From: Patescibacteria group bacterium
GTDB lineage: Bacteria > Patescibacteriota > Microgenomatia > Daviesbacterales > UBA10151
Direction of reading: 5' to 3'
DNA: 64,000 nt
Assembly: GCA_038064895.1 (NCBI GenBank)
Contig: JBBTSA010000010.1
Span: 118,616 to 182,615, forward strand
Shown in pieces: positions 12,002-62,857 of the stretch (the stretch's first letter is position 1; each line of letters starts with the position of its first letter). The position numbers and the translations under genes are program-made. The notes beneath the pieces are model-generated. The model was not told where the DNA came from. It searched no databases and saw only the letters and a list, made by a program, of their open reading frames with translations.

Positions 12002-12032
12002 TATAAATTTGGAATATAATATCACTACATTT

Positions 12033-13406: not shown

Positions 13407-14173
13407 AAGTTGTGGTACCAATGGCAGGAAAAGGATCAAGGTTTTCAGATGCTGCTCATTTAAATTCGGAGTATAAAAAACCAAAACCTTTAATTAGTAT
13501 TAAAGGAAAACCAATGATTGTTTGGGCAATTGAATCTTTAAAAAAGTTTAACCCTAAGCCGCAAGATCTTATTTTTATCTGCAGACAGGATCATGAAGAC
13601 GATTTCCAAATATCTCGCTCTCTAAAAGATCTTTTTGGCGATCAAATTAAAATAGTGCTTATTGCTCAAATCACAAAAGGTGCTGCAGAAACGGTTTTAA
13701 AAGCCAAAGAATATATTAGCTCTGATGAAGATATTATTGTTTCTGATTCTGATCACTATTTTGACGGGAGCTTTCTATACAATAAAGTTTCCGGCAAGGA
13801 TTCAGAAACTGAAGGGGTAATACCGGTTTTTAAACCCCCTGATAAAGACCCAAAATGGAGTTTTTCGTTGGTTGAAAAGGGTGATACAGTTACAGCGGTT
13901 GGAGAAAAAGATAAGGAACTTGCTGCAAAGGGAGCTTATGCAAATATCGGGGGTTATTATTTTACTCATGGAAATGTTTTTGTCAAAGAAGTAGAAGGGG
14001 CAATTTTAGAAAATGATTTAACAGGAGATGAAGGGAAAAAAGAATTTTATGTTGCACCAATCTATCAAAGATTAATCAGTAAGGGAAAGAAGATAATTGC
14101 TGCTATTACTCCAAATGTCTGGGGCCTGGGTACCCCCAAGGATGTTGAATATTTTGAAACCAATTTTAAGTAA
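13403..14173 (+). CDS. Sugar-1-phosphate nucleotidyltransferase (short form), paralog 2
   Basis: VVVPMAGKGSRF (canonical GxGxR signature), KPLISIKGKPMIVWAIESL, C-terminal VWGLGTPKDVEYF. Confidence 0.7.
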   Translation: MKVVVPMAGKGSRFSDAAHLNSEYKKPKPLISIKGKPMIVWAIESLKKFNPKPQDLIFICRQDHEDDFQISRSLKDLFGDQIKIVLIAQITKGAAETVLKAKEYISSDEDIIVSDSDHYFDGSFLYNKVSGKDSETEGVIPVFKPPDKDPKWSFSLVEKGDTVTAVGEKDKELAAKGAYANIGGYYFTHGNVFVKEVEGAILENDLTGDEGKKEFYVAPIYQRLISKGKKIIAAITPNVWGLGTPKDVEYFETNFK

Positions 14174-35473: not shown

Positions 35474-35477
35474 TTAT

Positions 35478-43944: not shown

Positions 43945-44871
43945 ATGAATTTTAAAAAAAATATTACTGGCAATAAAAGCAAAATTGCGCAATGTTCTTT
44001 TTGTCATAAAGCAAAAAATGTAAAATTTATCTTTGCTGATAGGAAATTCAATTTTTTCTTTTGTTTCACTTGTCATATGGGATTTACATACCCTTACCCA
44101 AAACCAAAGGAACTGGAAAAATATTACCATGAAAATTATTGGGTCACACCTGGTCTTTTAGGATTCTTCAGAAAGTATGTTTTTGATTTTTTCCAAACTC
44201 GGCGTAAAAGGTGGGTTATGCATTACCTCTCCAAAGGAAAAATTCTAGATGTAGGCGCAGGAGAAGCTAAATTCGCTAAATCCCTAGGTAACAGATATCA
44301 AGTCACGAGTTTAGATGTACCATCTTCAAAAATTATTAATAAGAGTGTTCTAAAGGTTAATTTTTTAAAATGGCAGACATCTAATAGATTCGATGCAATA
44401 GTGTTTTGGGAAAGCCTGGAACATACTCCAAAACCGGAGCAATACTTACAAAAAGCATATAAATTGTTAAAAAAAGATGGTTTTATGTTTATTGAATATC
44501 CCCGATTTGATTCCTTTGAGTCAAGATTTTTCAATAAGTATTGGTTTCATCTGGACCCACCCAGACACTACAGTTATATAACTGAGAAAGGACTTGAATT
44601 GCTTGTATCCCGTACTGGACTGTTGAGAGTTTTCCATGGAAGTGTTGCTGCTTTTGAATACGCCATATGGGGATTTATTGGAAGCACCCTAAACATAATA
44701 AATCTGAGAATAACAGATATCTTAAAACAAAATCGCAGTTTAATATTATTATTTCTACTGATCCCTTTTTTTATTATGGTTGTATTTATTGAAATCTTTT
44801 TTGCAATAATAGGACAATCTCCAATTGGATTAATGATTGCCAAAAAAGAATCTAAAAACCTAGCTCCTTAA
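43945..44871 (+). CDS. Class I SAM-dependent methyltransferase with N-terminal Cys4 zinc-ribbon
   Basis: CSFCHKAKNVKFIFADRKFNFFFCFTCHMG (two CxxC pairs), then ILDVGAGEAKFAKSLGNRYQVTSLDVP and FDAIVFWESLEHTPKPEQ. The track start 43924 is TTG; ATG at 43945 is preceded by TATAAT at 43919-43924. Confidence 0.65.
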   Translation: MNFKKNITGNKSKIAQCSFCHKAKNVKFIFADRKFNFFFCFTCHMGFTYPYPKPKELEKYYHENYWVTPGLLGFFRKYVFDFFQTRRKRWVMHYLSKGKILDVGAGEAKFAKSLGNRYQVTSLDVPSSKIINKSVLKVNFLKWQTSNRFDAIVFWESLEHTPKPEQYLQKAYKLLKKDGFMFIEYPRFDSFESRFFNKYWFHLDPPRHYSYITEKGLELLVSRTGLLRVFHGSVAAFEYAIWGFIGSTLNIINLRITDILKQNRSLILLFLLIPFFIMVVFIEIFFAIIGQSPIGLMIAKKESKNLAP

Positions 44872-46744
44872 GTAAATTTTTCTTGATATCTATAAAATCT
44901 TTGTTTTTAAGTTTAAAAGCATAAAAATTGTCCGGTTTATAAAAAATGTCTTTATAACCCCCTTTTCCGTTCTCGACGCAAAGACCTTTGTAGAAAAAGC
45001 CCTTTTGTCCGTCTTGTTCTTTTATGTATGGTATTAATTGTTTATACTCATTAAGATATATTCTCTCTGAGCATCCATCTATTAATTGAGTACCCTGAAA
45101 ACGCATCCAAAAAGGAAAACTTGATAAAAAACTTTCAGTATAAAATGGACCATTCTCTATTTCTGAAGTATCAAAATAAAACAGCATCGGTTCTGTTTGA
45201 TTAAACTGTTTAATTTTTTCCTTAAATTTAGACTGAAGAAATATCTGTCCAGACGCAGCTCGTCCATTTAAATTTGCACTATTAAAGTAAGTATAGATCA
45301 ATTGTCTATTAGCAAAATAAAAAAGAATTATAGATAAAAAAAATATTGGTAAAAATACCATAAATAAAATTGTTTTAACCTTTTTAGTCCTCTCATAAAA
45401 AATTACCAGTAGTGCCGAGATAAACAAATAAATTCCAACACTCGGAATCATTAGATAATGATCCTGAGCCCCTCCAAATGCTAAATTCTCACTAGCCAAT
45501 ACCCAAGTTAACACAATAAAAAGAAAGGATATTACCGGACCAACCCATAAAGCAAGTATTAAATGATTTTTTCTACCATCTATTTTCCATTCAATCCAGT
45601 ATACAAAGCTTAGGATCAAAATCAGCAAACCAAAAAATGTGGAATATATTCTGGGAATATCAAAAATTATTCTATTTTCTTTTGGCAAACTTAAGAAGTG
45701 ATTTGCAATAAAGAAAACCATTATTTCCAGAATAAAGTTTAAACAAAAGGCCAACAGGAAAAACCTCCAGGGCTTTTTTACTATCAGTAAACTTAAAATT
45801 AAAATTATCAGGCTAAAGATTACTGTTGGCCCACCAAGTATAAAAGAGAAATAATCTTTAAAGCTTTCCATATTTAGTAAACCAAATATTTTCCAGACGC
45901 TATCACTAACAGGAAATGTATGGCCCAATCCTTGTAAAGGGGTTAGTATTAGGTGCCAATTACCTTCTAAAACTCTAAGTATCACTGTAGGAACAACGCC
46001 AATATAATTCATTACTACCTTGGGATGATATAACGTAACAACTATAAAAGGTGCAAAAAGAATAAATAATCTTACTAGACCAATCCTTAGTGCAACAACA
46101 GAAGGTTTTTGAATCAATAAATAAGCTTCTATAGAAGGTATTAACACAAGTAACGGATACAATCTCATTACAGAAAAAAGTACTGCAATAATTAAAAAAG
46201 TAGTCGCTAAGCTTAAACCTTTCCACATCAATAAATTGTTTTTAATAACTTGGTAATAAGTAATCAAAAATAGCCCCATAAAAAACATTCCCAAATATTC
46301 ACTAGGCTCTACAGCTGTCTCTAGTGGACCTGCAGACGGGTAGCTCATTGCAAAAAGTATAGTTGTTAAAATTGCAAGCAATCTACTTTTAAAAACCAAT
46401 AAAACTAGGGGGAAAAGTACCATACTGGCTAGTATTTTAAAGCAAATACCAATTATCTGCATTTTAAAAAAATCAAATCCAACCAAGCTATTTATGATAC
46501 CAGTATAATAAAGCGGAACGGTTGTATAAGGACCTCTTTCTATCCAAACATCAGCAATTTTAGACAAGGGATGAAAACCCAGTAGTTTATACCAGAAAAT
46601 AAAAGACCAATCATCCGGTGTAAGACCAATTTCTAAGGCAGGCTTTAGAAGATCATATTGCATCAAAGATACAATAAAAATAAGTATAATAAAAAGAAAG
46701 AAATTAGAATCTATGGTCTTTGTTAGATCAGATATTTTTTGCAC
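44852..46744 (-). CDS. Polytopic membrane protein, family C member 4 (630 aa)
   Basis: LTPDDWSFIFWYKLLGFHPLSKIADVWIERGPYTTVPLYYTGIINSLVGFDF...C-terminus FYKGLCVENGKGGYKDIFYKPDNFYAFKLKNKDFIDIKKNLLKELGF. Convergent 20 nt overlap with 43945..44871. Confidence 0.5.
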   Translation of the reverse strand: MQKISDLTKTIDSNFFLFIILIFIVSLMQYDLLKPALEIGLTPDDWSFIFWYKLLGFHPLSKIADVWIERGPYTTVPLYYTGIINSLVGFDFFKMQIIGICFKILASMVLFPLVLLVFKSRLLAILTTILFAMSYPSAGPLETAVEPSEYLGMFFMGLFLITYYQVIKNNLLMWKGLSLATTFLIIAVLFSVMRLYPLLVLIPSIEAYLLIQKPSVVALRIGLVRLFILFAPFIVVTLYHPKVVMNYIGVVPTVILRVLEGNWHLILTPLQGLGHTFPVSDSVWKIFGLLNMESFKDYFSFILGGPTVIFSLIILILSLLIVKKPWRFFLLAFCLNFILEIMVFFIANHFLSLPKENRIIFDIPRIYSTFFGLLILILSFVYWIEWKIDGRKNHLILALWVGPVISFLFIVLTWVLASENLAFGGAQDHYLMIPSVGIYLFISALLVIFYERTKKVKTILFMVFLPIFFLSIILFYFANRQLIYTYFNSANLNGRAASGQIFLQSKFKEKIKQFNQTEPMLFYFDTSEIENGPFYTESFLSSFPFWMRFQGTQLIDGCSERIYLNEYKQLIPYIKEQDGQKGFFYKGLCVENGKGGYKDIFYKPDNFYAFKLKNKDFIDIKKNLLKELGF

Positions 46745-46746
46745 AA

Positions 46747-48327
46747 TTATAATTTTTTTGACTTCAAATCTTCTAATATTATTTGCGTGATATTAAATAT
46801 TTTTTTATCTTTAAATCGAAATGCTCTAAACTCTGATACATTATATCTGGTTTTAGCTGTCCTTATATTAAATTGACTCATAGCACATAAACCATCCTGT
46901 TCAAAATACTCACCTCTATTGTTGTAAGAGATTATTAACTGATTTCTTTCAGTTACATAGCTTACACACCCTAAGAAATTAGGTTTTTTGAAATAAAGCA
47001 TCCAATATTCAAAATACCCCAAATTGGAAGAAACTGCATAAAACTGATGTAATCTTGGATCATGAAGTCCCTCAAAATAAACAAACACATTGAGCTGGTT
47101 TTTAGTAAGTGATCCAAGCACTTGATTTTGCATATAACTTTGGTCTTTCCACCCAGTTCCCCGAGATAACAAATCATTAAAGTACCTATTAATCTCATTA
47201 AAGCTTACTAAAGCTACAATAAAGAAAAGAAAAAAAATAATAAATAAATATCTTAGCTGCTTAAATTTAATCCATAATTCATAAAATAAACATAGTAATC
47301 CTGCGATAAAAAGACTTATTCCCATTGAAGGAATTATTAAATACCAGTGAACGGAATCAGAGATATGAAAAGCCTTACTCTGAAATATCCATGTAGCTAT
47401 TAGAAAAAAGAAAGCAAAGAAGGGTCCGAAAAATAATAAAAAGAATTTATTCAGCTTACTTCCTCTCTTAATCCAGATTATCAGGTAACCGGATGATAAA
47501 ACTATAAGAAAAATGCCCAGTAAAGAAGCCGATATTCCCAAAATCTTAAGCTGATCATTCCCCAGTAATGTATACCCGAGAGCCTCCAACGGAGCAAGAG
47601 AAAAATACCAGTTACCTGTTTTTAAATCATTAACAAAGGCAAAAGAACCCAAACTACCTATTGCCAAAAAAATTATAGGCATATAAAAAATAAGTAGTCT
47701 CGTGAATGATTGAAAGAAAAACCTAATTTTTTTATTCCTAAATATTAAATAAATTTCAATTAAAATAATTAATCCTAATATGGGATATATTCTTATTGGA
47801 GAAAGTATGAATGTCAAAAATAAAATTATAGATGACAAAATTGTTAATCTCATAGATTTCTTGGTTACACAAAAGTAGTAAGATAAAAAGAATAAATTCA
47901 TAAAGGCAATTGCTAAATATTCGCTACCTTTAACAACATGCTTAAAGGCCCCTGCCGATGAATGAATTATTGAAAATATTATTGCTGCGCTGCTTGCTAA
48001 AAAATAACTTCTAAAAAGCTTATAAATTAGGATAAAGAGAGTAATTGATGCAAAAATTTTAAAGCAAATATTAATAATTTGAAACAGTTGGTAATTTATA
48101 CCAAAAAGTGATTCGAGAATGCCGATGTAATAAAACTGAATTGTGGTGTAAGGTCCCCTAATCATCCAGGCATCTAAAGCTTTATCGAAGGGATGCGGAT
48201 CGAATGTTTTATAAGCAAACAACAGTTGCCAGTCGTCTCCAGTCAAACCACTGTTTAGAATAACTTGCGAAAACAAGAAGGTAAGTACTGTACATGCTAA
48301 TAGTGTAAATATAACGTATAATTTCAT
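46747..48327 (-). CDS. Polytopic membrane protein, family C member 5 (526 aa, shorter C-terminus)
   Basis: LTGDDWQLLFAYKTFDPHPFDKALDAWMIRGPYTTIQFYYIGILESLFGINYQLFQ and C-terminus SEFRAFRFKDKKIF. Confidence 0.5.
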   Translation of the reverse strand: MKLYVIFTLLACTVLTFLFSQVILNSGLTGDDWQLLFAYKTFDPHPFDKALDAWMIRGPYTTIQFYYIGILESLFGINYQLFQIINICFKIFASITLFILIYKLFRSYFLASSAAIIFSIIHSSAGAFKHVVKGSEYLAIAFMNLFFLSYYFCVTKKSMRLTILSSIILFLTFILSPIRIYPILGLIILIEIYLIFRNKKIRFFFQSFTRLLIFYMPIIFLAIGSLGSFAFVNDLKTGNWYFSLAPLEALGYTLLGNDQLKILGISASLLGIFLIVLSSGYLIIWIKRGSKLNKFFLLFFGPFFAFFFLIATWIFQSKAFHISDSVHWYLIIPSMGISLFIAGLLCLFYELWIKFKQLRYLFIIFFLFFIVALVSFNEINRYFNDLLSRGTGWKDQSYMQNQVLGSLTKNQLNVFVYFEGLHDPRLHQFYAVSSNLGYFEYWMLYFKKPNFLGCVSYVTERNQLIISYNNRGEYFEQDGLCAMSQFNIRTAKTRYNVSEFRAFRFKDKKIFNITQIILEDLKSKKL

Positions 48328-48330
48328 TAT

Positions 48331-49086
48331 ATGAAGGAAAAGAAATCTAAGATTGTAGTCATTTTTTTAGCATATAATGCTTCTAAAACTTTAGAAAAAT
48401 TCTACTTAGAATTTCCTAAAAAATTTGTTTCGGATATCATCTTAGTTGATGATGCATCCAAAGACAATACTTTCAAAATAGCCAAAAAGTTGGGAATTAA
48501 ATCATTCAGAAATCCTGTGAATTTAGGTTATGGGGGAAATATGAAAAGAGCTTTAAATCTGGCGCTTGCAAGTGGAGCAAATATCGTCATCGATATTCAT
48601 CCGGATGGTGAATATAAACCTTCAGCCATTCCATATGCCATAAAAAAAATAGAGTCGGGAGCAGAATTTGTTTTGGGAAATCGTTTTACCAATTTTTACA
48701 ATCCTTTAACAAGTGGAATGTATATTTGGAAATGGCTTCCTATTAGGCTTTTAAATTTTCTGGATACGATTATTCTAGGCATAAACTTAGACGACTTTCA
48801 TCAAGGCTTTAGAGTTTATACTAAAAAAATGCTTGAGCGGATAAATTATCAGTCAAATTCCAATAATTATTTATTTAGCTTTGAATTAATAGCCCAAGCA
48901 GTCTATCACAAAGTTAAAATATCCCAGGTCCCTGTAGAAACCAGCTACACCGGCAAAAAACGAGGAGCTAGCTTAATAAATAGTATTAAATATTCAATGG
49001 GTACATTCAAAGTACTGTTACTCTTTATGATGGCTAAGTTAGGATTTAGAATACAACTTTTCCAGTCTAAACAATTGTCAGTTTAG
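48331..49086 (+). CDS. Glycosyltransferase family 2
   Basis: KIVVIFLAYNASKTLEKFYLEFPKKFVSDIILVDDASKDNTFKIAKKLG and DIHPDGEY. Confidence 0.7.
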   Translation: MKEKKSKIVVIFLAYNASKTLEKFYLEFPKKFVSDIILVDDASKDNTFKIAKKLGIKSFRNPVNLGYGGNMKRALNLALASGANIVIDIHPDGEYKPSAIPYAIKKIESGAEFVLGNRFTNFYNPLTSGMYIWKWLPIRLLNFLDTIILGINLDDFHQGFRVYTKKMLERINYQSNSNNYLFSFELIAQAVYHKVKISQVPVETSYTGKKRGASLINSIKYSMGTFKVLLLFMMAKLGFRIQLFQSKQLSV

Positions 49087-50305
49087 GGATAGCAAGAATA
49101 AATCTTCCACCCTTTTTCCTGTACTCCGCTTGTTTTTTTATTATCTCATCAGCAAAATTCCAAGCCAAAAGCAGGGTATAGTCTGGTTGATCCTCCAGCA
49201 ACTTTGACTCCGGAAAAATCGGGATGTGCATACCGGGAGTAAATTTCCCCTGCTTATAAGGGATTGAGTCAACTATATAATCAAGTGTTTCAGGTCCAAT
49301 TCTGCAATAATTCAGAATTATATTTCCTTTTGCAGATGCTCCGTATCCTACAATCTGTTTGTTTTCCAAACGCAGTCCCCAAAGAAGCTGTACTAATTCA
49401 TGCCTTACCTTATCTACCCTCCGTCTAAATTTTAAGTATGTTTTGGGGTTTAAGATTCCTCTTTTCTTCTCAAGTTGTAGTAACTGTTTTACACATCTAC
49501 TTTCTTTTCCAGTATTTCCAACAAAAACCCTAACTGAGCCGCCATGGACTGGAATTCTTTGGATATCTATTAACCAAAGTTTATGTCTTTTTAACAGTTT
49601 TTCGAGTGGAGTAATCGAAAAATACGAAAGGTGCTCCTGATAAATAGTATCAAACTCTACCTTCCCAATTAGATCAATAAGATATGGGAATTCGGCAATA
49701 AATAATCCATCATCAGAAAGCAATACTTTTATACCTTCCAAAAAATCATGTAAATTGTGCACATGAGCAACAACATTTGTAGCCGTAATAATTTTGACCT
49801 GACCATACTCTTTTTTTATTACTTTTGCCAACTCTTTTGTAAACAAAGCACATATTGTTTTGACTCCTTCCAAATTTGCCTTTTTCACAAGATTTTCAGC
49901 AGGATCAACACCCAAAATCTTCATCCGCAAGGCCTTAAATGCTTTAAGTAGTGTTCCGTCATTGCTTCCAATATCTAAGACCAAATCTCCCTCTTTAGCA
50001 TAAGTCTTTGCGATTGCTTTCTTGGCTAAATCAGCGAAGTGGGTGCGCATTGTTTCAGAAGTAGAGGGAATATACACATAATTTTTAAACATAACTTTGG
50101 GGGAAACCACATGAGCAAGTTGCACCAATCCGCAATCCCTGCAAAAACAAACATCCAGAGGATAAAATTTCTCTGCCTTGTGACGATAATCTGCTTTTAA
50201 AAATCCGTTAGGTACCGGTGTTGGCCCCAGCTGTAAAAACAGTAACAAATTATTACTATCACAAGCCCGACAAACTTCCAGTTTAAATACTTCTTTTTTA
50301 AGCAT
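49067..50305 (-). CDS. NDP-hexose C-methyltransferase-like (Zn-binding N-domain plus class I MTase plus C-terminal domain; TylCIII/NovU/Coq5-sugar-C-MT architecture)
   Basis: CRACDSNNLLLFLQLGPTPVPNGFLKADYRHKAEKFYPLDVCFCRDCGLVQL (the CxxC...L..G..P....F.....E..YPL...C..CGLVQL block typical of this family). MTase motif VLDIGSNDGTLLKAF. 412 aa as in characterised sugar 3-C-methyltransferases. Confidence 0.7.
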   Translation of the reverse strand: MLKKEVFKLEVCRACDSNNLLLFLQLGPTPVPNGFLKADYRHKAEKFYPLDVCFCRDCGLVQLAHVVSPKVMFKNYVYIPSTSETMRTHFADLAKKAIAKTYAKEGDLVLDIGSNDGTLLKAFKALRMKILGVDPAENLVKKANLEGVKTICALFTKELAKVIKKEYGQVKIITATNVVAHVHNLHDFLEGIKVLLSDDGLFIAEFPYLIDLIGKVEFDTIYQEHLSYFSITPLEKLLKRHKLWLIDIQRIPVHGGSVRVFVGNTGKESRCVKQLLQLEKKRGILNPKTYLKFRRRVDKVRHELVQLLWGLRLENKQIVGYGASAKGNIILNYCRIGPETLDYIVDSIPYKQGKFTPGMHIPIFPESKLLEDQPDYTLLLAWNFADEIIKKQAEYRKKGGRFILAIPKLTIV

Positions 50306-54627: not shown

Positions 54628-55416
54628 TTGTGGTTTCTGATAATGTATCCTTCCAAAAGAGAAATGAAAATAAAAAAAATAGTTAGTATAATTCTCACCT
54701 CTTATAATGAGGAAAAAAATATTGGAAGAACAATAAAAGATTGCAAAACTTTACAAAAATTTTTCCCAATTGAAATAATCGTGGTTGATGCCGCATCAAA
54801 AGATAAAACAATAGAAATTGCAAAAAAAATGAGGGTTGACAGGATTATTCAGTTTCCCTTTAAACGAGGCAAAGGTGCAGATTTTTGGGTAGCAGGTTGT
54901 GTTGCAAAAGGTGATTACATAATTCAGATAGATGCAGATCACCAATTTCAACCCTATGAAATTCCTTTGTTTGTTGATTCATTAAACAAAAGGGCTGATA
55001 TTGTGATAGGAACAAGATTTGGTGGAGGAAAAATTGAAAAGGGATCTGTAAGTTTCAGAAACCTTTTTGGTAATTGGCTTATGTCTTTGGCAACTTCAAT
55101 AGCATGTGGAAGGAGAATAACAGATGTAATGGCAGGTTTTAAAGGATTTAGAAGAGAAGCTTTTTTAGCACTGGATTTACAAGAAAGACATTTTGAATAT
55201 GAAGCGGAAACAGTTACCAAGGCAGTGAAAATGGGAATGAATTTGGAACAAATTCCAATTACCTATACAAAAAGGGTGGGAGGAGTCTCCGGCATCAAGG
55301 CTATACGGGATGGTTTAAATGTATGCAAAGCCATTGTAAAAGTTTACTTTAGTAATTTACCAAATTATCATGAACTCTTTGCTAAATCCTCTTTAAAACA
55401 TAAACCTCATTATTGA
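54628..55416 (+). CDS. GT2 polyprenyl-phosphate glycosyltransferase, DPM1/GtrB-like
   Basis: VSIILTSYNEEKNIGRTIKDCKTL...IEIIVVDAASKDKTIEIAKKM...IIQIDADHQFQPYEI. The start is probably MKIKK at about 54664. Convergent overlap with family-A GT-C 55382..57733. Confidence 0.7.
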   Translation: MWFLIMYPSKREMKIKKIVSIILTSYNEEKNIGRTIKDCKTLQKFFPIEIIVVDAASKDKTIEIAKKMRVDRIIQFPFKRGKGADFWVAGCVAKGDYIIQIDADHQFQPYEIPLFVDSLNKRADIVIGTRFGGGKIEKGSVSFRNLFGNWLMSLATSIACGRRITDVMAGFKGFRREAFLALDLQERHFEYEAETVTKAVKMGMNLEQIPITYTKRVGGVSGIKAIRDGLNVCKAIVKVYFSNLPNYHELFAKSSLKHKPHY

Positions 55417-57733
55417 GACCTTTCCATATTAGTTTAGTTTGACAACGACAAACTGCCTTAGGATCTCTATTCTTACCTAAAACTAAGTAATCGTAATCAT
55501 CCTCATCCCTCAAAGGATGAGAGTTAATATTTGCTTCCACATTGAGATAAACTCCTGACTGCGGTAGAAAATATATTTCTTTGTCTCTTAAGCTAAAAAT
55601 AACTGCTCTCCTTAAAAAGGGGGGGTTAAAATATTCTTCATTATCAATGTAAATCTTTCCAGATGCTTCAAAAACCTCCTTAAACTCATTAAAAGTTCCT
55701 TCTATTTCTTGACCTTGCGCCAGATATTTATCGGTAATCAGATAAATTTTTTCCCAATCCGTTTCAACATTTGAGTTATCGAATAACTTTATAAAAAATT
55801 CTTCGTTTTGTAACTGCGCTTTTCTAATTTCAGGTAAAGTTTCAAAGTAGCTAGCATCTATTAGTAAAGTGGAGATTTTAAGTTTACGAAGTACTAGAGG
55901 ACTTAAATATACTGCTATATCAAAATATTCCGGAGAGGCCTCGATTGTATATGCTCTAAAATCTCCAGGAAAAATAGGAGCAAATACTCCCGCTTCCACT
56001 AATGCTCTTGACATGCCACTTGGATGAGGGGTACGGATATCTAAAACAACAACTCTGCTGTTATAAGGCAGATTATTTTTCATCCATTTGATACCTTCGC
56101 TACTTTTTTGGGGACTTGGTACCAGTTGATTCTCTCCAAATCTGGTTTTAGACAAAAGGGCAAGGGGAGGAATAATAGTGGGGACAAAAAGCCACAAAAT
56201 GAAAATAAAAAATAAAATTTTTTTTAAAAAAAATCCCTGTCTGATAAATTTGATGCTCTTTAGTAAAGTCAAGCAAATGACTAAAGAAAAAACCAAAAAA
56301 GAAAAAGATAAAAATCTATTGCCATTTGCCACTAAAAATTTAGGGACCAAAACATTGTATGCAACAAGCGAGGTGAAACCGGCAATAAATATAGTAAGCA
56401 ATAATATAAAGTACTTAAATTCAGTCCTAAGAATAATCAATATTAAAATGTTTATTAAAATTAGTAGATCTAGTCCTGCATGAAACCAACGAAGGCCTAA
56501 CCATTCATCTTTTACAGGCAGTGTTTTGGATATCGCCTGGTAATAATGATAAGAAGTAAAATCTTCCTTTATATCCTCTTTTTTGGGAAATACTATTACT
56601 GATTCTTCTTTTATTTTGGAAGGGCCAGTTGCAGAAGTAATAATACCACCCTGAAATAATATGATTAAAGATGTTAATACTCCCAGTAACATTAAAACCT
56701 TAAGATTTTTAAAAAGCGTTCCTTTATTTTTTTCTATTAATAATACACCCACAAATATTGCCGGAGCGGTAGCTACAAAAATTGACTCACTAACTAGAGC
56801 CAGCGTTGATAAACCCACAGATAAAGTAGTCCAAGTTGCTAAAGAATTATTTTTCCTATAATAAATTAGTATTGCTAAAATTGATAAAAAAATCGAAAGA
56901 CCAAATGAGTGAAAAATAAAGTAGATTAAGGCATCTAAGTTTATTGGTGCTCCATATACTTCGATTGACTGATTTACAGTCGGTAGGTTTCTAAGGAATA
57001 TAATAAGCTCATTAAAATTATGAATATTTGGCAAATGAATAGGAAAATTAGGTATTAAGAGGTAGAAAAAACCAAAACTTACAAACAAAGTAAGGCCTGC
57101 CAAATTAGCGAGTAAAAATGATAGCAGATCCTTAGATCTACCCCAAATCCAAATAAATATTTGGACACTACATAGTATAAACAGAGTAGAGAAAAAAAGG
57201 TGTAAAAATTTGAAGTCCAGTCCGGTAAACAGGTAAAATGCTCCCAAAAGTTCCGATGTACCCAAATGATACAAGAGAGGTAAATCTGGCTGCCAAGGGG
57301 TCAGGGAAGGAAAATTTCCTTTTATAAAAGTGTGTGCAACCCCGTAGTAAAGATTAGTATCGCTACCAATTAATGCATAACTACCTTTCCAGACCAAAAA
57401 GCTACCCCAAAAAACTAAGGAGGCAATATATAAAAGAAGTAACTTTCCGCCAGGAAATACCACTTTTGATAATCCCCTACTTAAATAAAAAATAATTGAT
57501 AAAGAAATCAAAATGAAATATGAAAATATTGCCCCGGTTAATCCTTTGATAAAAAAGGAGGTAATGTTTAGGCTAAAGATAAACAGCAATATACCGAAAA
57601 TGCTTCCCACCGGTAATAATAATTCAAATCTTTCTATGGAGGAGGTTTTTCGAAGTATTATTATTCCTGCAATTATTAAAGGAAGTAAAAGCACAAACAG
57701 TAAAAGATAAAAATACAGTGATTGAGTAAACAT
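55382..57733 (-). CDS. Polytopic membrane protein, family A (783 aa); putative GT-C-like glycosyltransferase
   Basis: RKTSSIERFELLLPVGSIFGILLFIFSLNITSFFIKG, LTPWQPDL, SESIFVAT, and C-terminus YDYLVLGKNRDPKAVCRCQTKLIWKGLNNE. Confidence 0.5.
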   Translation of the reverse strand: MFTQSLYFYLLLFVLLLPLIIAGIIILRKTSSIERFELLLPVGSIFGILLFIFSLNITSFFIKGLTGAIFSYFILISLSIIFYLSRGLSKVVFPGGKLLLLYIASLVFWGSFLVWKGSYALIGSDTNLYYGVAHTFIKGNFPSLTPWQPDLPLLYHLGTSELLGAFYLFTGLDFKFLHLFFSTLFILCSVQIFIWIWGRSKDLLSFLLANLAGLTLFVSFGFFYLLIPNFPIHLPNIHNFNELIIFLRNLPTVNQSIEVYGAPINLDALIYFIFHSFGLSIFLSILAILIYYRKNNSLATWTTLSVGLSTLALVSESIFVATAPAIFVGVLLIEKNKGTLFKNLKVLMLLGVLTSLIILFQGGIITSATGPSKIKEESVIVFPKKEDIKEDFTSYHYYQAISKTLPVKDEWLGLRWFHAGLDLLILINILILIILRTEFKYFILLLTIFIAGFTSLVAYNVLVPKFLVANGNRFLSFSFLVFSLVICLTLLKSIKFIRQGFFLKKILFFIFILWLFVPTIIPPLALLSKTRFGENQLVPSPQKSSEGIKWMKNNLPYNSRVVVLDIRTPHPSGMSRALVEAGVFAPIFPGDFRAYTIEASPEYFDIAVYLSPLVLRKLKISTLLIDASYFETLPEIRKAQLQNEEFFIKLFDNSNVETDWEKIYLITDKYLAQGQEIEGTFNEFKEVFEASGKIYIDNEEYFNPPFLRRAVIFSLRDKEIYFLPQSGVYLNVEANINSHPLRDEDDYDYLVLGKNRDPKAVCRCQTKLIWKGLNNEVYVLKRI

Positions 57734-57738
57734 ATAAT

Positions 57739-58710
57739 TTGATATACTATACTACCAAACCGATGAAAAATAAAAAATATCAAAATATTTTAGTAACAGG
57801 GGGTGCAGGTTGTGTCGGATCAACTTTAGTTCCCCTACTGCTAAAAGCAGGTTATAAAGTAAGAGTTCTAGATAATTTAATGTATGGGGGTATGGGACTG
57901 TTAACCAATTTCTCAAATCCCAACTTTGAGGTGATCATTGGGGATATTAGAAATAAGACAGTCGTTACATCTGCATTAAAGAATATGCATGCTATTATCC
58001 ATTTGGCAGCAATAGTTGGTTATCCGGCTTGTGATAAATATCCCCGTGAAGCACAGGAGATAAACTATCAAGCCACGAAACAGCTAAATGAACTAAGAGG
58101 CAAAAATCAATTGCTTATCTTTGCTTCAACAGGAAGCAATTATGGTCATGTGGAATCCGGAATGTGTACAGAGGAAACTCCCCTTGCACCTCTTACTAAT
58201 TACGGAAGAAGTAAAACAAAGGCCGAAGAAGCTATCGTAACTTCTCCAAACGTCATCATTTATAGATTTGCCACTGCATTTGGTTTGTCTCCAAGATTAA
58301 GGCTTGATCTTTTTATCAACGATCTTACTTATCAAGCCCTCAAGACTAAACATTTAGTTATATATGAAAAAGATTATAGAAGAACATTTATTCATGTTAA
58401 AGATATGGCTAAATCTTTCATATTTGCTTTGGAAAATAGTTCAAAAATGATAGGTCAAACTTATAATGTCGGCGATGAATCAATGAATTTAAAAAAAGAA
58501 GATATAGTAAATATTTTACTTCAAAAACTGGAATTTATATTAAACTTTACTGACTCTGGTAGAGATGCTGATCAAAGAAATTACGCAGTTGATTATTCTA
58601 AAATTAAAAAACTTGGATTTAAAACAGATATTTCAATTGAGAATGGAACTGATGAGATGATTAATGCCTTCAAAGTTGTAACTATCAAAAACCCCTACTC
58701 TAATTATTAA
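57739..58710 (+). CDS. Extended-SDR NAD-dependent NDP-sugar epimerase/dehydratase
   Basis: ILVTGGAGCVGSTLVPLLLKAGYKVRVLDN, YGRSKTKAEE (YxxxK). Confidence 0.7.
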   Translation: MIYYTTKPMKNKKYQNILVTGGAGCVGSTLVPLLLKAGYKVRVLDNLMYGGMGLLTNFSNPNFEVIIGDIRNKTVVTSALKNMHAIIHLAAIVGYPACDKYPREAQEINYQATKQLNELRGKNQLLIFASTGSNYGHVESGMCTEETPLAPLTNYGRSKTKAEEAIVTSPNVIIYRFATAFGLSPRLRLDLFINDLTYQALKTKHLVIYEKDYRRTFIHVKDMAKSFIFALENSSKMIGQTYNVGDESMNLKKEDIVNILLQKLEFILNFTDSGRDADQRNYAVDYSKIKKLGFKTDISIENGTDEMINAFKVVTIKNPYSNY

Positions 58711-58715
58711 AGCCT

Positions 58716-59897
58716 ATGATCAAACTTATTAAATCAACCTTCCTAAATGAGTCAGAGGTCAAGAAAAAATTAGTCGAGTTTATTGTAAAAACAGAAATTT
58801 TGAGTATGGGAAAGGAGTGTCAAGAATTTGAGGAAAGCTTTACTAAATATCAAGAAAGAAAATATGCTGTCCTGGTAAACAGCGGTAGTTCAGCTAATCT
58901 TGCTTTAATTCAATCATTACTTAATCTTGGACGCCTTAAAAAAAGTGATCTTATTGGGTTTTCTGCGCTTACTTGGTCAACCAATACTATGCCGCTTTTG
59001 CAGCTTGGATTAAATCCAATACCAATAGATGTTGAAATTGATACTCTAAATATATGTAGTAAAACATTACTAAAAACCCTTAAGAAATATAAGCTACAAG
59101 CCCTATTTATAACTAACCTTTTGGGCTTTTGTGATGACATTGATAAAATCCAGCAAATTTGTAAGAAAAATAAAGTTTTGTTGATAGAGGATAATTGCGA
59201 ATCTTTAGGAACTGTTTATAAAGGTAAGAAATTGGGTAACTTTTCTCTTGCAAGCACTTGCTCGTTTTATGTTGCACATCATTTATCTACAATTGAGGGA
59301 GGGATTATCTGCACGGATGATAAGCAGTTAGCTAATATGCTTAAAATTGTCAGAGCTCATGGTTGGGATAGAAATCTCGATCAAGAAAGTCAAAAAATAT
59401 TACGCATAAATAATAAAGTTTCTGACTTTTATGCAAAATATACCTTCTATGATTTAGGTTATAACATAAGACCCACGGAGATTACAGGTTTTTTAGGAAA
59501 TTGCCAAATTGGATTTATAGATCAAGCGAACAAAAAAAGAGAGCAAAACTTTTTTAAACTTGCTAAAGTTATCTATTCTCAAACGGATAAATATTATCCT
59601 ATGAGATTTAATCATATTGAATTTTTATCAAATTTTGCAGTACCTGTTGTGTGTAAATCGAAAAGAATACTAAAAGATCTTCTAAAAAGATCTGCGGATA
59701 TAATAGAAGTCCGGCCAATTGAAGGAGGAGATATGACAGAACAACCCTTTTTTCAAAAATATCTTACAAATGTAAATAAAAATCTAGTTAATCCTAATGC
59801 TAGGGTAATACATAATCAGGGACTTTTTTTTGGAAACAATCCGGATTTAACAAAAAAAGAATTGAAGACAATTATAAATATTTTTAGCAACAATTAG
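58716..59897 (+). CDS. DegT-fold PMP-dependent NDP-4-keto-6-deoxyhexose 3-dehydratase-like (ColD/E1 class)
   Basis: DegT-family N-terminus (AVLVNSGSSANLALIQ). At the position of the Schiff-base Lys the sequence is FSLASTCSFYVAHHLSTIEGG, with His-His instead of Lys, followed by VRAHGWDRN. Both are hallmarks of the ColD/E1 3-dehydratases, recalled from memory. Confidence 0.6.
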   Translation: MIKLIKSTFLNESEVKKKLVEFIVKTEILSMGKECQEFEESFTKYQERKYAVLVNSGSSANLALIQSLLNLGRLKKSDLIGFSALTWSTNTMPLLQLGLNPIPIDVEIDTLNICSKTLLKTLKKYKLQALFITNLLGFCDDIDKIQQICKKNKVLLIEDNCESLGTVYKGKKLGNFSLASTCSFYVAHHLSTIEGGIICTDDKQLANMLKIVRAHGWDRNLDQESQKILRINNKVSDFYAKYTFYDLGYNIRPTEITGFLGNCQIGFIDQANKKREQNFFKLAKVIYSQTDKYYPMRFNHIEFLSNFAVPVVCKSKRILKDLLKRSADIIEVRPIEGGDMTEQPFFQKYLTNVNKNLVNPNARVIHNQGLFFGNNPDLTKKELKTIINIFSNN

Positions 59898-59902
59898 CCT
59901 AC

Positions 59903-60802
59903 ATGACAAAAATCTCTTCATTCAGTAGTATGAAAGATTATATTTCTTTAGCAACTGCTACATTTTATCCGTCATGGCCCTTTGATAAATCAGATAAAGT
60001 TAGGGGTGATTTGGCAATTGAAACATTGAAAGCAATAAAGCAAATGGGGCTTTCGCTTTATATATCAGATGGGGGAAGTTCAGAAGGTTTTCTTACTAAA
60101 ATTTCAAGCCTAGGATATAAAATATATACACAAAAAAAAGGCGGGTTAAGTGCCGGTCGAAGACAGGCTCTAACTCAAGCAAGTCTTAAAAAGGATAGCC
60201 TGGCTATTGTTTTATTTGAACCTGAAAAAGTATCATTTATAAAAGAATGCTTAATCAAGTTAGTTCAGTCTATAATAGAATCTCAAGCGGATATGGTAAT
60301 ACCAAAAAGGGATGAAGAATCATTTTTATCTTATCCATATTATCAAGCATCGTCTGAAAGGCTTCTTAATTCACTAATGGCTTCAATGATAATAAATGCT
60401 TTGAAAAAAAAGGGGGGGGCAATTCCAAAAAAAATTAATGAGATCGATTTTTTATTTGGACCGAAAATAATCTCAAATAAGCCCCACATTTTAGATCTGT
60501 TTATGGATAAATATGCCAGCAAAAATCTATCGGATGAGAAAAAATTTCAATGCGAGGTTTGGGCGAATGCTCTATTCTTCCCACTATTTGTAGCTTTATA
60601 TAAGGGGTCCAAGGTTATTAGTTTGCCTGTATCTTATTTTCACCCCAAAAGCCAAACACTTGTGGAGAAAAGTAACCCTTTATTCATTAGAAAAAGAGAG
60701 CACCAATTTAAAACTCTGCTGGATGCAACTAAAGAGCTTCTCTTACTACTTGAAAATAATCCTAAGTCACGTATAAAATATACTGGAAGATTTTATGAAT
60801 AA
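59903..60802 (+). CDS. Hypothetical protein; possible cryptic GT-A-fold nucleotide-sugar transferase
   Basis: No clear family. LSLYISDGGSSEGF and AIVLFEPEKV loosely resemble the GT2 DxGS and DXD regions. Contains the A8-G8 homopolymer tract at 60404-60419. Confidence 0.3.
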   Translation: MTKISSFSSMKDYISLATATFYPSWPFDKSDKVRGDLAIETLKAIKQMGLSLYISDGGSSEGFLTKISSLGYKIYTQKKGGLSAGRRQALTQASLKKDSLAIVLFEPEKVSFIKECLIKLVQSIIESQADMVIPKRDEESFLSYPYYQASSERLLNSLMASMIINALKKKGGAIPKKINEIDFLFGPKIISNKPHILDLFMDKYASKNLSDEKKFQCEVWANALFFPLFVALYKGSKVISLPVSYFHPKSQTLVEKSNPLFIRKREHQFKTLLDATKELLLLLENNPKSRIKYTGRFYE

Positions 60803-61730
60803 ATCATCAAAGATTTATATTGCAGGACATAAGGGGCTTGTAGGATCTGCTATTTTGCATAAATTCCAATCCGAAGGATATAAAAATATTATTACAAGAA
60901 CCCATTCTGAATTGGATCTCACAAGACAAGATTTGGTAGAAGATTTTTTTAATCAGGAAAAACCTCATTATGTCATTATAGCGGCCGCTCGCGTTGGAGG
61001 TATAAAAGCAAATATGACCTATCCTGCAGAATTCTTATATGAAAATTTAAGTATTCAAAATAATATAATTTGGTCAGCTCTTAAAACCGGCACAAAAAAG
61101 TTAATGTTTTTAGGAAGTTCTTGTATCTATCCCCGGCAGTGTCCTCAACCCATGAAAGAAGAGTACTTACTAACCGGTAAACTGGAACCAACAAATGAAG
61201 CATACGCGGTTGCTAAAGTCGCAGGTCTAAAATTATGTGAATACATAAAGCGTGAATTAAAAAAATCATTTATTTCTGTAATGCCAACGACTATTTATGG
61301 GCCAAAGGACCATTTTGACCCGCTCATCGCTCATGTAGTTCCTTCTTTAATAAGAAGAATGGTGGAAGCTAAAAAATTAAACTCTAAGTCTATAGAAATT
61401 TGGGGAACAGGTAATTCCAGAAGGGAATTTTTATATGTTGATGATTTAGCGGATGCAATTTATTTTCTAATGCAAAACTATGATAGTAAAGATTTTATTA
61501 ATATAGGTGTTGGCAACGATATCTCTATTAAAGAACTGACATATATCTTAAAAGATCTTACCGGGTTTAAGGGTAAGTTAGTCTTTGATAGATCTAAACC
61601 GGACGGCATGCCTAGAAAACTAATGGATACTCAAAGGCTTAATAAACTTGGCTGGAGACCAAAGGTTGATCTCAGGGAAGGATTAAAACAAACTATTGAT
61701 TGGTATATGGAAACATTATCGAAAGACTAA
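60795..61730 (+). CDS. GDP-L-fucose synthase family (Fcl/WcaG/ColC; GDP-4-keto-6-deoxy-D-mannose 3,5-epimerase/4-reductase or colitose synthase)
   Basis: Near-collinear match to remembered E. coli Fcl: KIYIAGHKGLVGSAI, AAARVGGIKANMTYPAEFLYENL, LMFLGSSCIYP, LEPTNEAYAVAKVAGLKLCE, IWGTGNSRREFLYVDDLA, DRSKPDGMPRKLMDTQRLNKLGW. Confidence 0.85.
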   Translation: MNKSSKIYIAGHKGLVGSAILHKFQSEGYKNIITRTHSELDLTRQDLVEDFFNQEKPHYVIIAAARVGGIKANMTYPAEFLYENLSIQNNIIWSALKTGTKKLMFLGSSCIYPRQCPQPMKEEYLLTGKLEPTNEAYAVAKVAGLKLCEYIKRELKKSFISVMPTTIYGPKDHFDPLIAHVVPSLIRRMVEAKKLNSKSIEIWGTGNSRREFLYVDDLADAIYFLMQNYDSKDFINIGVGNDISIKELTYILKDLTGFKGKLVFDRSKPDGMPRKLMDTQRLNKLGWRPKVDLREGLKQTIDWYMETLSKD

Positions 61731-62857
61731 TATGGCTCGATTATTTTATTTATAAAATCAAGACTCTCAAGGATAGATTGCTTCCATGAGAATTTTTTAC
61801 TCCATTTTACTGCTTCTACTCTCATTCTCTGATATCTACTATAATTACTTAATAAATCCATTAGTTCAGAAGCTAAACTATTTACGGAATGTTGTTTATC
61901 AATTATTCCAGTTTTACCATTTAAAATAGAATCTCTAAGACCCGGCACATCAAATGCAACGGTTGGTGTACCCATTGCAGCTGCCTCGATTACCACTAAA
62001 CCCCAACCTTCACGGATTGAAGGATTTATTAAAACATGTGCTTTTGCTAACAGTTTATATTTCTTTTTTTCTGAAACATGTCCCCAGAACTTAACTTTTT
62101 TAGAAATTCCCAAATCTTTAACCTTTTTTTTAAGATAATCTAAATATTTTAATTCTGATCTACCCACAACCCAAAATTGCCATCCCTTTTGTGCACGATT
62201 AACTGTAGCAAAAACTTTTATAGCATCTTCTATACCCTTATCTTTGCTTAATACACCAAGATAAATCAGAGTTTTATTCTTTTCTTTTGGGGGAAGTTTC
62301 TTTTTTCGGGGTTGATCTATACCATTATGTACAATCGTAATATTTTTTGGAGGAACTCCCCACAAAGTTAGATCTTGTTTTGTGGAATCCGATACCGTTA
62401 TAAATGGTATTCGGCTATATATTAATTTAAAGATAAATGGCTCAAATAATGGTCCAAAAAGAGCAGGAAGTAAATTAAATGGTGTTGGCCAAGAGTTGAA
62501 CTTCCATACCTCCTTAGTAACCTCGTGTATAAAAGCTAATTTTTTAGTTCTAATATAAAGAGGGGTAAAAAAGGGTATGCCGTGAAATTGATCTATCACT
62601 AAATCAAATTTTTTGTGACTACCAAATAGATACCATATAAAGGCTTGAAGTTGAACTCCAAAAATTTCGGATCCAACTCTTTTGACATTAATTCCATCAA
62701 GTGTCTCCTCATTTTTGGCTCCTTTAAAGTTTGCTGTAAAAAGGGTTACATTATGCCCTGCGCTTACCCAACCTTTAGCATGCTCATGAGTTGATATTTC
62801 TGCTCCGCCCGCATTCGGATGACCCGGTCCACGCCAAGAGAAAAGTAATATATTCAT
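61727..62857 (-). CDS. Glycosyltransferase family 4 (GT-B fold)
   Basis: NPSIREGWGLVVIEAAAMGTPTVAFDVPGLRDSI (E-X7-E). Confidence 0.75.
   Translation of the reverse strand: MNILLFSWRGPGHPNAGGAEISTHEHAKGWVSAGHNVTLFTANFKGAKNEETLDGINVKRVGSEIFGVQLQAFIWYLFGSHKKFDLVIDQFHGIPFFTPLYIRTKKLAFIHEVTKEVWKFNSWPTPFNLLPALFGPLFEPFIFKLIYSRIPFITVSDSTKQDLTLWGVPPKNITIVHNGIDQPRKKKLPPKEKNKTLIYLGVLSKDKGIEDAIKVFATVNRAQKGWQFWVVGRSELKYLDYLKKKVKDLGISKKVKFWGHVSEKKKYKLLAKAHVLINPSIREGWGLVVIEAAAMGTPTVAFDVPGLRDSILNGKTGIIDKQHSVNSLASELMDLLSNYSRYQRMRVEAVKWSKKFSWKQSILESLDFINKIIEPY

Follow-up and report, generated by a model that had tools for sequence, protein, structure and literature searches.

A candidate operon for a 6-hydroxylated GDP-3-deoxy sugar, joining Cj1427-like, ColD-type and Fcl-like genes in a groundwater Patescibacteria genome

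Deoxysugar pathways have been reviewed as sharing a common opening, with 4,6-dehydratases catalyzing the first step in all of them (PMC8987622). The GDP-L-colitose pathway of E. coli O55 and Yersinia pseudotuberculosis, comprising ManC, GMD, ColD and ColC, serves as the reference system for the locus described here. In the CDP-3,6-dideoxyhexose pathways of Yersinia, the E1/E3 pair (DdhC/AscC with AscD) removes the C3 oxygen of a 4-keto sugar. The HS:2 heptose pathway of C. jejuni relies on the C4-dehydrogenase Cj1427, the epimerase Cj1430 and the reductase Cj1428. Cj1427 carries a tightly bound NADH that is recycled by alpha-ketoglutarate, and it oxidizes C4 of a GDP-manno sugar (PMC10680097). 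A further point of comparison is the HS:5 GDP-3,6-dideoxy-heptose pathway, together with the in-vitro synthesis of GDP-3-deoxy-heptose (PMC10440746, PMC10680097). In such reactions, a C4-dehydrogenase, a PLP/glutamate 3-dehydratase and a C4-reductase generated GDP-3-deoxy (6-hydroxy) heptoses (PMC10440746, PMC10680097); specifically, Cj1427 and a ColD homologue gave GDP-3-deoxy-4-keto-heptose, which C4-reductases then reduced (PMC10680097).

The locus is an operon of four tightly packed genes (57763-61730), all on the + strand, in a groundwater Patescibacteria genome. The analysis covered a window of 64 kb, about a quarter of a 256,891-bp contig of this incomplete genome. Three reading frames singled out in an earlier note (57739..58710, 58716..59897 and 60795..61730) were all recovered on the + strand; for the first, an ATG start at 57763 (315 aa, the product held in public records) is likelier than the TTG at 57739 (323 aa). 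The operon and its neighbors are as follows:

55382..57733, - strand: polytopic membrane protein, 783 aa, divergent neighbor with no family match; membership of the same glycan system tentative
57763..58710, + strand: SDR, Cj1427-like putative GDP-sugar C4-dehydrogenase, 315 aa (PDB match, residue alignment)
58716..59897, + strand: ColD-type PMP/PLP-dependent NDP-4-keto-sugar 3-dehydratase as assigned from sequence, 393 aa, catalytic His188
59903..60802, + strand: ORF3, CPR-specific GT-A-fold protein, probable glycosyltransferase, 299 aa, no TM segment
60795..61730, + strand: GDP-L-fucose synthase-clade epimerase/reductase, 311 aa (NCBIfam, PDB, residue alignment)
61727..62857, - strand: GT4 glycosyltransferase, 376 aa, convergent neighbor (Pfam Glycos_transf_1, 1.5e-37); membership tentative

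The Cj1427-like gene lies upstream of the ColD-like gene with a gap of 5 nt, and the 3' end of ORF3 overlaps the Fcl-like gene by 8 nt. As in the colitose pathway, a ColD-type enzyme with His188 and without an Fe-S cluster is followed by an Fcl-family C5-epimerase/C4-reductase, and the sugar is predicted to be GDP-linked. Unlike that pathway, the operon has no GMD and instead carries a Cj1427-like SDR lacking the dehydratase Glu; its reductase is closer to Fcl (47% identity to the E. coli enzyme) than to O55 ColC (41%), a GT-A gene is inserted, and the host belongs to the Patescibacteria rather than to the proteobacteria. The likeness to HS:2 lies in a C4-dehydrogenase that would leave a 4-keto sugar with its 6-OH, followed by Fcl-family reduction; in contrast to HS:2, a ColD-type 3-dehydratase stands in between, the reductase is of the true Fcl clade, there is no separate cupin epimerase, and the substrate may be GDP-mannose instead of GDP-heptose. 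Whereas the in-vitro C. jejuni set was an artificial mix across serotypes, described as novel, the window holds a natively linked operon. With Yersinia E1/E3 the locus shares the DegT fold, the replacement of Lys by His (AHH) and the predicted C3 deoxygenation of a 4-keto sugar, but it lacks the 2Fe-2S cysteine motif and an E3 reductase, and its partners are of GDP type, not CDP type.

The product of 58716-59897 has the DegT/aspartate-aminotransferase fold (Pfam DegT_DnrJ_EryC1, PF01041, 1.9e-55) and contains both SFYVAHHLSTIEGG and RAHGWDRN, as first reported. Its top PDB matches were the ColD chains 2gms, 3b8x, 2r0t and 3gr9 (1.2e-54 to 6.8e-53), making E. coli O55 ColD its closest solved relative, with 34% identity; E1 came next (3bcx, 6e-38; 134 bits against 188 for ColD), and true aminotransferases reached 4e-24 at best. 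The mutant ColD chains H188N (3b8x) and H188K (2r0t) identify the catalytic column as the one occupied by the leading His of AHH ('VAHH') in the window protein. In the MAFFT alignment this His shares a column with His188 of O55 ColD, with the Lys of ArnB from E. coli (SFHAIKN) and with the Lys of both DegT aminotransferases encoded in the window. The replacement of the Schiff-base Lys by His was thus upheld, no Lys elsewhere in the protein being aligned to that position. His188 and His189 are unchanged in 85 of 85 relatives, and D159, E162, S183, R219, N248, R250 and R331, which we take to be cofactor or ligand contacts of ColD (their roles reportedly come from Cook and Holden), are shared unchanged by the window protein and all 85. 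The absence of a 2Fe-2S cysteine motif sets ColD apart from E1/SpnQ (PMC8987622). Since the Cys-rich iron-sulfur insert of E1/SpnQ, DCYCAPGCDNTC, falls in a gap of the aligned window protein, the enzyme is ColD-type and not CDP/E1-type. Judged from its sequence, it is a genuine ColD-type sugar 3-dehydratase; the broader ColD/E1 class proposed earlier holds in its ColD half, while the CDP/E1 option falls away.

The upstream SDR matched PDB entries 6vo6/6vo8, presumably the C4-dehydrogenase Cj1427 of C. jejuni, which acts on GDP-heptose, over its full length (1e-80, 274 bits; 41% identity to 6vo6 across 305 columns), with the next best hit at only 8e-25. The GMD model TIGR01472 had no match in the SDR, TIGR02622 gave 20 bits, and E. 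coli GMD gave 12.6 bits. YxxxK is kept, and the SDR segment 'ASTGSNYG' aligns with GMD 'ASTSELYG', placing Ser at the position of GMD Glu135. The earlier note had asked whether the signature of this SDR is that of GMD or of CDP-glucose 4,6-dehydratase: neither is present, and both identities were rejected given the missing family-model match and the lack of the Thr-x-Glu (or Asp-Lys) dehydratase acid/base, Ser standing in place of the Glu. The protein is best described as a putative Cj1427-type GDP-sugar C4-dehydrogenase. Counting against the overall interpretation, identity to 6vo6 is just 41%, and SDRs of this type could work as C4-reductases.

The Fcl-like product (60795-61730) matched NCBIfam GDP-L-fucose synthase NF047922 at 9.9e-135 and 448.9 bits, a near miss of the curated cut-off of 500, and PGAP naming would stay at family level. 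PDB comparisons with GDP-fucose synthases gave 6e-102 (344 bits) for 8du0 and 2e-94 for E. coli 1bsv. Ser107, Tyr136 and Lys140, presumably catalytic, and Cys109 and His179, presumably the epimerization acid/base of GDP-L-fucose synthase, are all kept; as the five are also identical in O55 ColC, they are useless for telling Fcl from ColC. Closer kinship to ColC was not found (313 bits to E. coli Fcl, 239 to ColC). The assignment to the Fcl family was borne out, in the GDP-L-fucose synthase clade and in the same operon as the ColD-like gene. This nearness to true fucose synthases rather than ColC, at a score just under the NCBIfam cut-off, also weighs against the best explanation.

ORF3 had no NCBIfam match and no PDB sequence match, and its Pfam GT2 match was weak (5.8e-4); its family comprises just 127 proteins. 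Its AlphaFold model (pLDDT 95.5) found glucosyl- and mannosyl-3-phosphoglycerate synthases (TM 0.53-0.56) and GtrB as the best Foldseek matches, and the model suggests a probable glycosyltransferase of GT-A fold. A homologue lies beside the module in contig L092 and, inverted, in L091. The 55382..57733 protein contains some 13 hydrophobic segments, and the window encodes two paralogues of it; in L092 its place is taken by a 781-aa gene, and that of the 376-aa GT4 by a 378-aa GT4. We tentatively place the membrane protein in the same glycan system as the operon.

Species-representative genomes gave at least 492 matches to the ColD-like family, the 80 listed coming mostly from Patescibacteria, which does not agree with the rarity outside proteobacteria suggested earlier. 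Public records label the window protein 'DegT/DnrJ/EryC1/StrS aminotransferase', JGI labels its relatives 'CDP-6-deoxy-D-xylo-4-hexulose-3-dehydrase', and NCBI gives the characterized E. coli O55 ColD the same generic aminotransferase name.

Of 81 related loci, 10 carry a true GMD (318-551 bits against the E. coli enzyme) no more than 10 kb from the ColD homologue; in five of these 10 it sits immediately upstream, at -1 or -2, and L044 has the order ManC-GMD-ColD-like. This linkage, and the GDP-sugar enzyme families found as partners in the window, count for a GDP-specific family. The trio of Cj1427-like, ColD-like and true Fcl genes occurs in four independent contigs with differing surroundings: the window, L092, L091 and L097 (ColD-like identity to the window 84%, 74% and 64%, respectively). 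There the Cj1427-like gene fills the slot held by GMD in related genomes, and an NJ tree built without bootstrapping groups the four ColD-like proteins in a single clade. A Cj1427-like neighbor is absent from all 81 other loci, where the best score was 73 bits. Four further loci (L093, L094, L098 and L095) carry a Cj1427-like gene with an Fcl-related SDR and without ColD, pairs that resemble the oxidize-then-reduce logic of Cj1427/Cj1428.

The best explanation for 57763-61730 is a GDP-sugar tailoring module. We assign a probability of roughly 0.5 to its product being a GDP-3-deoxy sugar that retains its 6-hydroxyl, made by C4 oxidation, C3 deoxygenation, C5 epimerization and C4 reduction. Because the partner of the ColD-type enzyme is a putative C4-dehydrogenase, not a 4,6-dehydratase, the product may be of this kind rather than a colitose-like 3,6-dideoxy sugar. 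The Cj1427-like SDR would oxidize C4, yielding a 4-keto sugar with the 6-hydroxyl kept, and would stand in for GMD, the enzyme supplying this dehydratase family in other Patescibacteria. The ColD-type enzyme would then form a PMP-ketimine, with His188 taking the C4' proton as the 3-OH leaves; hydrolysis of the enamine would release GDP-3-deoxy-4-keto-sugar and ammonia, PMP being restored by glutamate, and neither an Fe-S cluster nor an E3 reductase should be needed. The Fcl-clade enzyme would carry out C5 epimerization and NADPH-driven C4 reduction, giving a GDP-3-deoxy-L-sugar with 6-OH, of the 3-deoxy-L-galactose type ('6-hydroxy-colitose') or a heptose analogue. More speculatively, ORF3, the neighboring GT4 and membrane proteins might place the sugar on a surface glycan. 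That Cj1427-type, ColD-type and Fcl-type enzymes form a natural route to a GDP-3-deoxy-L-hexose (or heptose) that is independent of 4,6-dehydratases and keeps the 6-hydroxyl is a tentative proposal, held at slightly short of even odds.

Canonical GDP-L-colitose synthesis is the strongest competing account, and we regard it as rather unlikely. Here, a GMD elsewhere would supply GDP-4-keto-6-deoxymannose, the ColD-like and Fcl-like enzymes would act as ColD and ColC, and the SDR would serve a second sugar (e.g., GDP-L-galactose with the same Fcl) or act as an alternative C4-reductase. The GMD linkage of the family in other Patescibacteria and the conserved ColD residues are consistent with it, and the window spans just one quarter of the contig; were a GMD encoded in another part of the genome, ordinary colitose and fucose synthesis would be possible. 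No GMD, ManB or ManC homologue was found in the 64-kb glycan-rich window, but this is weak evidence because 71 of the 81 related loci also have no GMD within 10 kb; as most of these loci have no nearby 4-keto-generating enzyme, unlinked supply appears common. Also counting against colitose are the Cj1427-like gene in the GMD slot, 5 nt upstream of the ColD-like gene in a pairing kept in four contexts, the greater nearness of the Fcl-like protein to Fcl than to ColC, and the fact that one of two operon SDRs would be left without a role. The full enzyme set for a GDP- or CDP-3,6-dideoxyhexose announced in the earlier note was not found, as the SDR is no 4,6-dehydratase and these three supply genes are missing from the window; the tandem nucleotidyltransferases it had included lie 45 kb away and are unlinked to the operon in every relative. 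No sugar-1-phosphate guanylyltransferase was identified in the window, which counts against the 3-deoxy, 6-hydroxy reading.

A heptose substrate, a sub-case of that reading with another sugar, is improbable. In its favor, GDP-heptose is the substrate of the sole characterized SDR of this family, 6-hydroxy heptose intermediates can be used by a ColD homologue and by C4-reductases (PMC10680097, PMC10440746), and NT1 weakly matches HddC at its N-terminal end (27 bits); against this, neither GmhA (SIS) nor HddA (GHMP kinase) occurs among the window ORFs scanned, related loci carry the hexose enzymes ManC and GMD, and the partner is of the true Fcl clade rather than a Cj1428-type reductase (8du0, 344 bits vs. 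7m13, 265 bits). That the ColD-like protein is a conventional sugar aminotransferase, or an E1-type dehydrase acting on CDP-linked sugars with an E3 reductase, is very improbable: the database names, the AHH shared with E1 and RfbH as top NCBIfam match (196 bits) speak for it, but that score is far under the 423 cut-off and equalled by the window's true aminotransferases, the Schiff-base column has no Lys, the Cys-rich insert is a gap, ColD outscores E1, and the window ORFs scanned gave no ferredoxin or flavin-reductase family match.

Whichever pathway operates, ColD-type dehydratases, with their 492 or more matches in species-representative genomes, are common among Patescibacteria and are routinely misnamed as aminotransferases. 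If the 3-deoxy, 6-hydroxy reading is true, the conserved operon of C4-dehydrogenase and ColD-type enzyme would be a natural exception to the rule that 4,6-dehydratases come first. It would also predict, in organisms whose envelopes are almost uncharacterized, a novel type of surface sugar, 3-deoxy and 6-hydroxy, of a class so far made solely by mixing enzymes in vitro.

By their arrangement, four plus-strand genes, spaced by 5 nt, 5 nt and −8 nt, form a single transcription unit, since the neighbour upstream, starting at 57733, is divergent and the one downstream, ending at 61727, is convergent. A promoter and terminator consensus scan of 57300-62100 gave counts not above those of shuffles and was uninformative.

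57763-58710, + strand: SDR
58716-59897, + strand: ColD-like protein of 393 aa with a DegT fold
59903-60802, + strand: ORF3, an un-annotated protein of 299 aa
60795-61730, + strand: Fcl homologue

The nearest solved relative of the DegT protein is E. coli O55 ColD (1.2e-54, 188 bits), followed in the PDB by the CDP-linked Fe-S 3-dehydrase E1 (6e-38) and by a putative NDP-4-keto-6-deoxyglucose 3-dehydratase (9wvy); true aminotransferase structures match at 4e-24 or weaker. The catalytic column was fixed by the engineered ColD chains H188N and H188K, and the first His of the window motif VAHH falls within it. Reference sequences were taken from annotated genomes (E. coli O55 ColD and ColC; K-12 ArnB, GMD, Fcl and ManC), and when these were aligned, ArnB and the window's two aminotransferases had their Lys in this column, confirming the earlier note's observation of a His in place of the Schiff-base Lys. 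ColD positions D159, E162, S183, H188, H189, R219, N248, R250 and R331 are identical in 85 of the 85 relatives examined, and we take them to have the ligand-binding roles seen in the Holden-lab structures. The cysteine-rich insert that binds 2Fe-2S in E1 is a gap in this product, which is therefore ColD-type by the Fe-S cysteine criteria separating the two groups (PMC8987622); the CDP-linked alternative of the earlier note thus falls away. PMP is predicted to be regenerated by glutamate, making an E3 reductase unnecessary. An E1 reading from the top NCBIfam match, RfbH, was discarded, as the window's true aminotransferases score equally against this non-discriminating model.

The ColD-like relatives from Patescibacteria also carry cysteines of their own that are missing from E. 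coli ColD: Cys35, Cys149 and Cys313 in all 85, Cys139 in 81 and Cys326 in 82 (Ser in the window). These family-specific residues do not fit the E1 Fe-S motif.

The Fcl homologue scores 448.9 bits against the NCBIfam GDP-L-fucose synthase equivalog (cut-off 500), and with fucose synthases of known structure it reaches 344 and 319 bits. It shares 47% identity with E. coli Fcl and 41% with O55 ColC, which are 39% identical to each other. Ser107, Cys109, Tyr136, Lys140 and His179, the last located in SNSHVIP of the E. coli enzyme, are kept in this protein and likewise in ColC. By sequence it belongs to the Fcl clade of GDP-sugar epimerases/reductases, with a 3-deoxy sugar as a possible substrate.

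The SDR carries neither of the two signatures, GMD (GDP-mannose 4,6-dehydratase) or CDP-glucose 4,6-dehydratase, between which the earlier note had expected to choose. The GMD model gave no match to it and the CDP-glucose 4,6-dehydratase model 20 bits; E. coli GMD scores 12.6 bits, and its ASTSELYG aligns with ASTGSNYG, placing Ser at the dehydratase Glu135. The 3,6-dideoxyhexose pathway previously proposed is thus retained in its 3-dehydratase and Fcl-family enzyme, but not as a complete enzyme set. The sole close solved relative of the SDR is 6vo6/6vo8, a full-length match (1e-80, 41% identity; the next reaches 8e-25) that we take to be C. jejuni Cj1427, and the depositor's molecule name agrees with the Cj1427c annotation. 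Cj1427, a C4-dehydrogenase, binds NADH tightly and relies on alpha-ketoglutarate to recycle it, and the 6-OH stays in place (PMC10680097).

Our preferred reading, with a probability of about one half, is a GDP-3-deoxy-L-sugar route that keeps the 6-OH, in which a C4-dehydrogenase stands in for GMD as the source of the 4-keto substrate. The SDR would act in the direction of oxidation at C4, leaving the 6-OH; the ColD-type enzyme, if it accepts a 6-hydroxy substrate, would remove the 3-OH in a PMP-dependent step; and the Fcl homologue would epimerise C5 and reduce C4. The end product would be a GDP-3-deoxy-L-sugar still bearing the 6-OH, possibly a hexose or a heptose, of presumed final stereochemistry. 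Raushel and co-workers have run the same enzyme combination in vitro, drawing on several C. jejuni serotypes for the enzymes, and termed the products novel (PMC10680097). Searching the literature for GDP-3-deoxy hexoses or heptoses of natural origin, or for colitose in Patescibacteria, returned only this in-vitro work, and no published natural pathway combining a C4-dehydrogenase, a 3-dehydratase and a reductase was found.

Ordinary colitose synthesis, with GMD encoded outside the window, is the main alternative, held to be less likely than the preferred reading. The window covers a quarter of one 256,891-bp contig, so GMD may sit elsewhere, and most related loci are also without a nearby 4-keto generator. 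Of 81 related loci examined for neighbours, 10 have a true GMD (318-551 bits to E. coli GMD) no more than 10 kb from the ColD-like gene; in 5 of these it is directly upstream, and one locus has the order ManC-GMD-ColD-like. None of the 81 has a Cj1427-like neighbour (top score 73 bits), and a metagenome contig scan with the SDR as query returned only three loci, none informative. The order Cj1427-like, ColD-like, true Fcl is nevertheless found in the window and also in L092, L091 and L097, three contigs whose surroundings differ (ColD identities to the window of 84%, 74% and 64%) and whose Fcl proteins score 335-348 bits to E. coli Fcl. The tandem nucleotidyltransferases at 12645-14173, counted in the earlier note as part of the pathway, were dropped from it and from any operon tie: the distance is 45 kb, the top PDB match (4evw) has unknown specificity, HddC matches only the N-terminal part, at 27 bits, and similarity to E. 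coli ManC is absent.

In a neighbour-joining tree without bootstrap, the ColD-like proteins of the four contigs sharing this trio group as one clade that branches basally in the Patescibacteria family. This clade departs from the near-invariant family consensus at residues 177, 187, 241, 319, 336 and 371. The substitutions include G187A, beside the catalytic His188, and V336E, three residues past Arg333 (ColD Arg331), and the six positions are candidates for accommodating a 6-hydroxyl in the GDP-3-deoxy-L-sugar route. The Cj1427-like family itself has a wide distribution that takes in KSB1, Acidobacteria and Asgard archaea. In three further Patescibacteria contigs and one KSB1 genome, its partner is an Fcl-related SDR and ColD is absent, resembling the "oxidise, then epimerise and reduce" logic of C. 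jejuni Cj1427/Cj1428.

ORF3, which has no transmembrane segment, belongs to a family of only 127 proteins, each unnamed or hypothetical; the few with an organism name are from Patescibacteria/Parcubacteria. Its predicted model (pLDDT 95.5) has a GT-A fold, with glucosyl- and mannosyl-3-phosphoglycerate synthases (TM 0.53-0.56, 10-12% identity) and GtrB as nearest structures, and the motifs DGGS and EPEK are kept in the family. A homologue accompanies the module in L092 and also, in inverted orientation, in L091, and is missing from L097. As speculation, ORF3 might be the transferase for the product sugar.

Almost the whole window, an AT-rich stretch (~33% GC) from a groundwater Patescibacteria MAG, is devoted to glycan biosynthesis.

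10250-12040 (−) and 968-2611 (−): carbamoyltransferase (NodU/CmcH type) and GT2-methyltransferase fusion
2641-4938 (−), 33161-35473 (+), 55382-57733 (−): polytopic membrane proteins of ~770 aa with 11-14 hydrophobic segments
21364-23052, 35442-37247, 37233-39050, 39056-40945, 40949-42835, 44852-46744, 46747-48327: seven polytopic membrane proteins of 526-630 aa
23654-28869 (−): separate amino-sugar cluster with an ArnA N-domain-like formyltransferase, two DegT aminotransferases that have the usual Lys, an SDR resembling 4,6-dehydratases and a Gfo/Idh/MocA-type oxidoreductase
49067-50305 (−): NDP-hexose C-methyltransferase type gene (Methyltransf_13 zinc domain and Methyltransf_14)

The larger membrane paralogues are 28-40% identical to one another and the smaller ones, four of them in tandem, 22-47%; neither set has a Pfam match, and their members could be GT-C-like transferases or polymerases of an uncharacterised kind. 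The amino-sugar cluster probably encodes a 4-formamido or diamino sugar pathway, and the genes at 10250-12040 and 968-2611 suggest carbamoylated and methylated sugars. Because at least eight related loci have a C-methyltransferase homologue no more than 10 kb from the ColD-like gene, this dehydratase family may have a connection with branched-chain deoxysugars.

RefSeq labels the characterised ColD of E. coli O55:H7 CB9615 (locus L090, 1702-2868) "DegT/DnrJ/EryC1/StrS family aminotransferase" and its ColC "GDP-L-fucose synthase family protein". Standard annotation is therefore unable to single out 3-dehydratases, and this accounts for the generic labels that the Patescibacteria proteins bear.

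The ColD-like family is very large, with 7,549 proteins at E ≤ 1e-20. Among GTDB species-representative genomes there are at least 492 matches with a relative, and the 80 listed come mostly from Levy-, Gottesman-, Roizman-, Woese-, Pace- and Saccharibacteria; many TPA records bear the deposited title "uncultured Gammaproteobacteria". The most frequent neighbour is a distantly Fcl-like SDR (39 of the 81 loci, usually at +1). In three loci (L029 11052-11996, L034 11195-12145, L042 4738-5673), the gene next to ColD-like on its downstream side is a GMD-related SDR (133-141 bits to E. coli GMD); with SSGKIFG at the dehydratase site and the Glu missing, it looks like an RMD-type C4-reductase that would give a GDP-3,6-dideoxy-D-hexose. 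Another SDR, of 311 aa with the motif ASTSHVYG, occurs in 14 loci, mostly directly upstream (for instance L045 9064-9999, L047 9064-9999 and L008 9022-9951). The model it matches best is CDP-glucose 4,6-dehydratase (155 bits, below cut-off), it has no acidic dehydratase residue, and it may be another unrecognised 4-keto generator. The GMD, RMD-like and Fcl-like neighbours therefore indicate that the ColD-like family acts on GDP-4-keto sugars, and it probably makes 3,6-dideoxy sugars in many Patescibacteria.
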